Below are positions 6,847 to 7,665 of a DNA stretch of 64,000 nt, piece after piece (positions within the stretch are counted from its first letter, which is position 1; each line of letters begins with the position of its first letter). Made by a program: the position numbers and the translations under genes. The DNA lies in NCBI RefSeq assembly GCF_057098645.1, contig NZ_CM169472.1. One strand, written 5' to 3'. The notes beneath the pieces are model-generated. The model was not told the DNA's origin. It ran no database searches and saw only the letters and a list, made by a program, of their open reading frames with translations.

Positions 6847-7665
6847 ATGAAAAGAAAACCATTAATTGCATTTTTCATTGCGATATTTATTGCGCTAACC
6901 ATATCAATATTATTTCCATTTAATTGTACTTACAAAAAATCACCTCAAGAACACTCACTTTCATTTATAAAACAATTACCAAATACGGTGAACTTATCAT
7001 CTCTTACTTATAATAAAGAGGATGATTTCCTGTATGCCACCCAGAATAGCCCTGCACAGCTACTTAAAATAACCAAAAGTGGCGACATCATGGACAGAGC
7101 CCCACTGCCTTTTATCTCTGATGCCGAAACAATTGAACACATACAAGGGAACATTTTTGCTGCAGTAGACGAAAAGACTTCTGAACTATTCTTTTTTACA
7201 GTTACAAAAGATATGCATATCTCCTTTCGAAATAAAATTCAGTTAGAAAAATTCAATAAAAAGAATAGAGGGTTTGAAGGGCTGGCATGGAAAGCAGATG
7301 ATCGGATGCTGTTTGTCGCAAAAGAAAGACGCCCAAGTAAAATATTTATATATCAACTTTCTCCAGACCTGCTGAGTGTAAAGCAAGCAACTATTCCAGA
7401 GGCACTAAATGATATACGTGTTAACGATATATCCGGCCTGGCCTTTAATAATGAAAGTCTGATGATTCTGTCCGATGAATCGCGTAAATTACTCAAGTTT
7501 AACCTGACAGAGATGTCTTTCATTGAGATGCTTGACCTGACAAAAGGAAATCATTCTCTGACCAGTGATTTGCCCCAACCTGAAGGAATTGTAACTCTGC
7601 CTGATGAAAGCATTTATGTTGCCAGTGAACCTGATATCCTCGCGAAATTTGTCCCTAATAAGTAA
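6847..7665 (+). CDS. LEE rorf1, predicted exported or membrane-anchored protein of unknown function
   Basis: 272 aa ORF with hydrophobic N-terminal segment (MKRKPLIAFFIAIFIALTISILF...); low GC; last LEE gene before the backbone. Confidence 0.75.
   Translation: MKRKPLIAFFIAIFIALTISILFPFNCTYKKSPQEHSLSFIKQLPNTVNLSSLTYNKEDDFLYATQNSPAQLLKITKSGDIMDRAPLPFISDAETIEHIQGNIFAAVDEKTSELFFFTVTKDMHISFRNKIQLEKFNKKNRGFEGLAWKADDRMLFVAKERRPSKIFIYQLSPDLLSVKQATIPEALNDIRVNDISGLAFNNESLMILSDESRKLLKFNLTEMSFIEMLDLTKGNHSLTSDLPQPEGIVTLPDESIYVASEPDILAKFVPNK

Follow-up and report, generated by a model that had tools for sequence, protein, structure and literature searches.

What kind of protein does rorf1 encode, and what might that protein do for the bacterium that carries it? 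The gene lies at the edge of the LEE (locus of enterocyte effacement) in a 64,000-nucleotide stretch of contig NZ_CM169472.1 (assembly GCF_057098645.1), the whole of which we call the window. An initial annotation described it as an open reading frame (ORF) at 6847-7665, encoding 272 residues with an N-terminal hydrophobic anchor or signal, placed last in the LEE before the backbone, beside the effector gene espG and divergent from the T3SS (type III secretion system) operons. Our analysis bears out all of these points. That the gene is functionally unassigned agrees with the literature, in which rorf1 is the exception among the LEE genes in having no assigned function (PMC5073101, 2016) and Rorf1 is a 'protein of unknown function' (a 2021 preprint). 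The PF06977 domain and the YjiK homology of rOrf1 were reported by Pallen et al. in 2005 (PMC1084347), and rorf1 is a known gene of a known family whose missing function is a known gap rather than a discovery. We are nearly certain that Rorf1 is a membrane-anchored five-bladed beta-propeller of the YjiK/CarP family. What the analysis contributes is a group of testable leads, namely a conserved acidic ring, a link to CarP and to CarO-like BOF proteins, and a fold neighbourhood that includes the glutaminyl cyclases.

The product of rorf1 starts MKRKPLIAFFIAIFIALTISILFPFNCTYKK in the ORF translation, and at the same position in E. coli O145:H28 RM12761 the RefSeq name is 'SdiA-regulated domain-containing protein'. 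The gene is real and no chance ORF, because it is a RefSeq coding sequence (CDS), is found in 696 complete genomes and has a ratio of nonsynonymous to synonymous substitution rates (dN/dS) of 0.18-0.27 relative to other LEE alleles. The initial annotation had recognised no motif in the protein, a statement that has to be withdrawn: against the Pfam family PF06977 ('SdiA-regulated') Rorf1 scores 180.5 bits where the cut-off is 21 (E 4.2e-53), and its residues 48-268 span profile positions 23-248 of 249, so that it is a full-length member. NCBIfam gave no match for either Rorf1 or EspG. A solved homologue exists in PDB entry 3QQZ, the C-terminal domain of E. coli YjiK, which is matched by Rorf1 itself (E 3.6e-33) and by a profile of 146 homologues (E 1.1e-88). 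The same annotation named clear homology to a characterised protein family as what would refute it. This is half the case: the homology is unambiguous, the family has a defined structure and one member, P. aeruginosa CarP, has genetic phenotypes, but no member's biochemical activity has been demonstrated. At E up to 0.001 the search recovers 600 representative clusters, which makes this a large family.

Structure prediction, which the initial annotation had suggested as a check, was informative. The AlphaFold2 model built on the alignment of the 146 homologues is confident, with a mean predicted local distance difference test score (pLDDT) of 94.5 and a predicted template modelling score (pTM) of 0.88. 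In it residues 4-22 form a helix, and the twenty strands after that make up five four-stranded blades, with an N-terminal strand at residues 36-43 completing blade 5, and the five-bladed fold can be superposed on 3QQZ. The number of blades bears on a reading that the Pfam name invites, in which Rorf1 links the LEE to SdiA and acyl-homoserine-lactone sensing, either as an SdiA-regulated protein or as a lactone-modifying propeller. We regard this as the least probable of the explanations considered here. The name is historical and no proof of regulation, and lactonase propellers are six-bladed, with scores far lower than those of YjiK and the cyclases. No SdiA-box-like site turned up in a consensus scan of 5000-6846, and the sole nearby site (4834-4851) has one mismatch, lies in AT-rich DNA and is uninformative.

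The N-terminus begins with MKRKP and continues in a 20-residue hydrophobic run, L6-F25, whose 17-residue Kyte-Doolittle mean reaches 2.98; a hydrophobic N-terminus is present in 126 of the 146 family members. A lipoprotein was considered and rejected: the lipobox [LVI][ASTVI][GAS]C is not matched by the F-N-C27 of Rorf1, and Cys27 is not conserved among the LEE alleles, being missing from that of C. rodentium. For a cleavable signal peptide the run would be long, and no obvious small-x-small cleavage motif accompanies it. CarP, the Pseudomonas aeruginosa relative discussed below, is listed as an 'inner membrane beta-propeller protein' (PMC12802237). We therefore favour a signal anchor with the N-terminus inside and the propeller in the periplasm, on the grounds of the long hydrophobic helix after KRK, the lack of a lipobox, the recurrence of the trait across the family and the inner-membrane listing of CarP. 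The N-terminal transmembrane helix and the periplasmic type of the family argue against a T3SS effector.

Among the 146 homologues, whose mean column identity is 25%, E94, E109, E160, D194, E246 and G247 are invariant, and S51, D92, E144, S209, E261 and P262 are at least 99% conserved; Rorf1 retains every one of them. Of the 37 columns that are at least 80% conserved, 6 hold a residue in Rorf1 that differs from the family consensus (H36, D83, K217, M223, D263 and A266). Mapped onto the strand limits of the model, the conserved residues recur five-fold, with an equivalent position in each blade. The first set lies at the entry of the innermost strands (NLSS51, D92-A-E94, G-F-E144-G, D194-I-S-G and P-E246-G) and contributes S51, E94, E144, D194/S196 and E246 from the successive blades. 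The second lies at the turn after the second strand (Q-N67-S-P, D-E109, K-E160-R-R-P, S209-D-E-S212 and S-E261-P) and contributes N67, E109, E160, S209-E211-S212 and E261. By standard propeller topology both sets would be expected at the same mouth of the central channel. In a weak match (E 0.03-0.3), the 'QaEG' motif of the family profile, which contains E246, aligns without gaps to residues 11-34 of DFPase, and this alignment would set E246 opposite DFPase E21, a ligand of the catalytic Ca2+.

A ring of this kind could also be a catalytic centre, and the main rival to a binding function is that Rorf1 is a periplasmic enzyme in which the conserved carboxylates act, possibly with the help of a metal, on an envelope or exported substrate; candidate reactions are glutaminyl-cyclase-like, phytase/esterase-like and phosphodiesterase-like. 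We consider this unlikely, and yet the first explanation to be weighed against our own. The fold neighbourhood of the glutaminyl cyclases and a phytase-like match speak for such an activity, but the glutaminyl cyclase family PF05096 gave no Pfam match to Rorf1 at E up to 1, the family profile reaches the cyclase structure 3MBR at an E of 1.2 only, and sequence identity to the cyclases is 10-14%. The phytase-like family PF13449 does match, weakly but above threshold, at 35.1 bits (cut-off 27.6); the best stretch is a fragment that covers only profile positions 69-144 of 284, the solved phytases match the family profile at E 0.2-1, and beta-propeller phytases have six blades whereas the Rorf1 model has five. 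The gene neighbourhoods of the family suggest no substrate.

We retrieved genome loci with a 22-sequence alignment of the Rorf1 family and compared the neighbourhoods of the best 80, almost all of which are from Proteobacteria. Tandem paralogues occur in 25 of them, nearly all in Pseudomonas, Stutzerimonas and related pseudomonads, and the pseudomonad loci have rpiA, ilvA, serA and related genes as neighbours, a context which we take to be the PA0316-PA0331 region of PAO1. The clustering of neighbours mainly recovered lineage-specific synteny with the housekeeping genes rpiA, ilvA, serA and those for an FAD oxidase and an FAA hydrolase; one further cluster was dismissed as antisense shadow ORFs that arose from crude gene calling. 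The only neighbour that recurs across lineages is a gene for a BOF/YgiW-type OB-fold protein, the family of CarO, which lies within 350 bp and on the same strand in eight loci, one of them in an Enterobacteriaceae metagenome-assembled genome (MAG). In five of these (L034, L039, L064, L072 and L083, at about 3560-5690 in each) the BOF gene stands between two PF06977 paralogues, four being of the Pseudomonas lineage and one an unclassified gammaproteobacterial MAG; the other BOF-adjacent loci are L014, L032 and L052. The order PF06977-BOF-PF06977 suggests that carO-like and carP-like genes were originally adjacent.

CarP brings a phenotype to the family. Its homologues bear the annotation of SdiA-regulated domain proteins, and Ca2+ homeostasis is lost in carP mutants (PMC10574481), which are also impaired in swarming and pyocyanin production at high Ca2+ (PMC10574481 and PMC8623646). 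We propose that Rorf1 is a bitopic inner-membrane protein whose YjiK/CarP-family propeller is held in the periplasm by a single transmembrane helix and a short cytoplasmic N-terminus that carries positive charge. The ring of carboxylates would bind a divalent cation, most likely Ca2+, alone or together with a small anionic ligand, and the protein would act as CarP appears to, as an accessory of the envelope in cation homeostasis or stress that is induced with the LEE by Ler and stays outside the secretion machine. The gene, its family and fold, the conserved residues, its retention, purifying selection and, from published work, its dependence on Ler are established; topology, metal binding and physiological role are inferences. 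The cation-binding, CarP-like role is put forward tentatively and by analogy, from the conserved acidic site, the weak DFPase and PF13449 matches, the topology, the family link to CarP, the BOF adjacency and the retention and selection of the gene; the combined reading, a Ler-induced, inner-membrane-anchored, periplasmic cation-binding propeller with a CarP-like accessory role, is possible and is the one we prefer. A more far-reaching version, to which we give little credence, is that a Ler-induced Ca2+ (or Fe2+) propeller couples external divalent cations to LEE function in a way that is invisible in standard single-strain assays. A Ca2+-dependent switch between the secretion of translocators and that of effectors is known, and such a switch, or the protection of the envelope during attachment, would be examples of the coupling.

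Retention and selection of the gene were assessed next to those of its neighbours. Our survey covered 5426 complete E. coli genomes, and an LEE1 probe (escR-escT) matched 696 of them. rorf1 was present in all 696, the match spanning 80% or more of the query in 689 of them, and an espG probe matched 688 genomes. In pairwise comparisons with E. coli 2011C-4251, E. albertii and Escherichia sp. MOD1, dN/dS was 0.27, 0.18 and 0.20 for rorf1 and 0.50, 0.32 and 0.70 for espG; for ler it was 0.06 and 0.09 in the first two, ler not being found in the short MOD1 locus. rorf1 thus has lower values than espG over the same pairs. In an array study of the Ler regulon of enteropathogenic E. coli, rorf1 is the strongest activated gene listed (50- and 58-fold), with espG at 12-fold (PMC3891560). 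rorf1 is expressed with the LEE and is under purifying selection. These data bear on the suggestion that it lacks any function and survives solely through its linkage to the LEE. In its favor are the deletion without a phenotype in the reported assays (PMC1084347) and the lack of the gene in the divergent islands of LEE type in Salmonella salamae and Edwardsiella; but dN/dS values below those of espG, the coverage in 689 of 696 LEE-positive genomes, the retention of every family-invariant residue and the strong activation by Ler (PMC3891560) make it very improbable.

The same evidence enters into a further explanation, that Rorf1 is a T3SS accessory protein which has the translocator EspD or some other component of secretion as its binding partner and tunes the assembly of the translocon. 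PMC1084347 tabulates rOrf1 and EspD as interacting in yeast two-hybrid screens, the gene is regulated by Ler together with the T3SS, and it is kept in every LEE-positive complete genome. According to the same paper, however, deletion leaves secretion, pedestals and virulence unchanged. Moreover, rorf1 is missing from the LEE-like islands in Salmonella salamae and Edwardsiella, members of the family occur widely among bacteria and in contexts without a T3SS, and a periplasmic propeller would not meet a substrate inside the needle. EspD is a hydrophobic membrane protein, a class expected to yield two-hybrid false positives. We regard this explanation as improbable and, like the SdiA-linked and no-function readings, as less likely than the cation-binding propeller.

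Several observations weigh against the cation-binding propeller that we prefer. No metal binding or activity has been demonstrated for any PF06977 member in the sources consulted, and the closest characterised fold relatives, the glutaminyl cyclases, are enzymes and not cation buffers. The window contains no BOF gene and no cation-sensing two-component system near rorf1. Deletion of rorf1 in C. rodentium left secretion, pedestals and virulence in mice unaffected (Deng 2004, as tabulated in PMC1084347). The placement of the conserved residues around the channel derives from topology rules and not from measured geometry, and Rorf1 may exist in a cleaved, soluble periplasmic form.

Relatives of rorf1 also lie in other contexts. 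A 52% identical E. coli paralogue (locus L002, 8001-11076) is followed on the same strand by a BOF (YgiW/CarO-like) gene and a CadC-like regulator (Trans_reg_C and CadC_C1), and the group has IS66 and IS3 elements and adhesin genes on its flanks. Further E. coli paralogues, 50-54% identical, lie directly downstream of genes or remnants of serine protease autotransporters of Enterobacteriaceae (SPATE; Peptidase_S6) in other genomic islands (L003, 7926-8939; L004; L005; L006, 9207-10037). An espG-rorf1 module in an EspC-type island was considered and rejected, as no EspG homologue is annotated beside the SPATE-linked paralogues. At L007 (3347-4849, and likewise L008, 2642-4144) a 43% identical homologue is flanked by fragments of IS3-family transposases and followed by a 500-residue ORF with no Pfam match.

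The features of the rorf1 region are collected in the table below. With E. coli O145:H28 strains the window shares near-identity: the figure is 99.9% with RM12761 in the rorf1 region and 100% with O145 RM9872 for the LEE1 and espG queries. The RefSeq order in RM12761 is escU...ler, espG, the SdiA-regulated domain gene, a short hypothetical ORF, a truncated setC pseudogene of the major facilitator superfamily (MFS), yicL, nlpA, yicS and nepI. espG, a PF06872 gene, is the immediate upstream neighbour of rorf1 on the same strand. The minus strand carries ler (3889-4278) and the LEE1 genes, so that the espG-rorf1 pair diverges from both. According to PMC11448038 the pair makes up a bicistronic operon. 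Just before rorf1 comes a weak Shine-Dalgarno-like AGAGA (6840-6844), and a terminator scan found no terminator-like site in the spacer between the two genes. Promoter-like sites at 6694-6722 and 6770-6799 came out of a consensus scan at background frequency only, so the scans neither support nor dismiss a promoter for rorf1 itself. The stronger activation of rorf1 than of espG by Ler makes a separate promoter within the spacer possible. Rfam gave nothing at gathering score across 3000-12000.

Table. Coordinates of features in and around rorf1 (positions in the window)
Feature	Position	Strand	Evidence
espG	5523..6719	+	PF06872, E 2.6e-204; RefSeq start corresponds to 5574
espG-rorf1 spacer, 127 bp, AT-rich	6720..6846	+	sequence
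rorf1 CDS, 272 aa + stop	6847..7665	+	ATG ORF; RefSeq CDS; PF06977, E 4.2e-53
Probable N-terminal signal-anchor, residues 1-26	6847..6924	+	MKRKP, then hydrophobic run L6-F25; no lipobox
Predicted five-bladed beta-propeller, residues 36-272	6952..7662	+	AlphaFold2 model
Hairpin, 18-nt arms AACCTGAATAACCCCGTA / TACGGAGTTATTCAGGTT, 94% complementary	7912..7949		inverted repeat; present in minimum free energy and centroid folds
LEE/backbone junction, inside truncated setC	8400..8403		LEE-negative genome matches; RefSeq partial MFS transporter pseudogene

The edge of the island could be placed by comparison. LEE-negative E. coli genomes match window positions 7666-9000 only from query position 735-738 on, and the junction is therefore at about 8400, with yicL, nlpA, yicS and nepI in the backbone past it. 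There is no other substantial gene within 7665-8400, some 735 bp of island-specific, non-coding DNA, and rorf1 is therefore the last LEE gene on that side. The GC content is 0.32-0.39 across rorf1 and 0.44-0.50 in the backbone. On the minus strand a T-run comes after the hairpin listed in the table, and a terminator-like site of that strand adjoins it; given the T-run, the hairpin resembles the terminator of a leftward transcript from 7950-8400. RefSeq also has a minus-strand hypothetical ORF of 35 residues at about 8059-8166. Farther out in the backbone, a RelE/ParE toxin gene and a helix-turn-helix antitoxin gene lie at about 12410-13070, between nepI and yicN.

To define a biochemical role for Rorf1 would be to finish assigning functions across a model pathogenicity island, and an activity would be the first for a widespread proteobacterial family.

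When Rorf1 is compared with known systems, the Ca2+-dependent propeller hydrolases (DFPase, SMP30/regucalcin, Drp35 and beta-propeller phytase) have six blades to its five, and the matches to them are short and mostly not significant. The type I glutaminyl cyclases of bacteria and plants (3MBR, 3NOK, 3NOL and 2IWA) share the 10-14% identity already mentioned and give no significant sequence or profile match. YjiK (3QQZ) belongs to the same PF06977 family, which NCBI names call the YjiK family; its solved structure covers the C-terminal domain only and it has no demonstrated function, and yjiK is a core-genome gene, whereas rorf1 is a horizontally acquired LEE copy, low in GC and dependent on Ler. 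P. aeruginosa CarP (PA0327) is placed in the same family as Rorf1 through the annotation of CarP homologues, and the Pseudomonas relatives of Rorf1 are 32-34% identical over residues 49-268. The presumed carP orthologue loci of other pseudomonads have a carO-like BOF gene and a tandem paralogue adjoining, whereas rorf1 stands without either; and while carP is under the control of the CarSR/BqsSR two-component system, rorf1 is under that of Ler.
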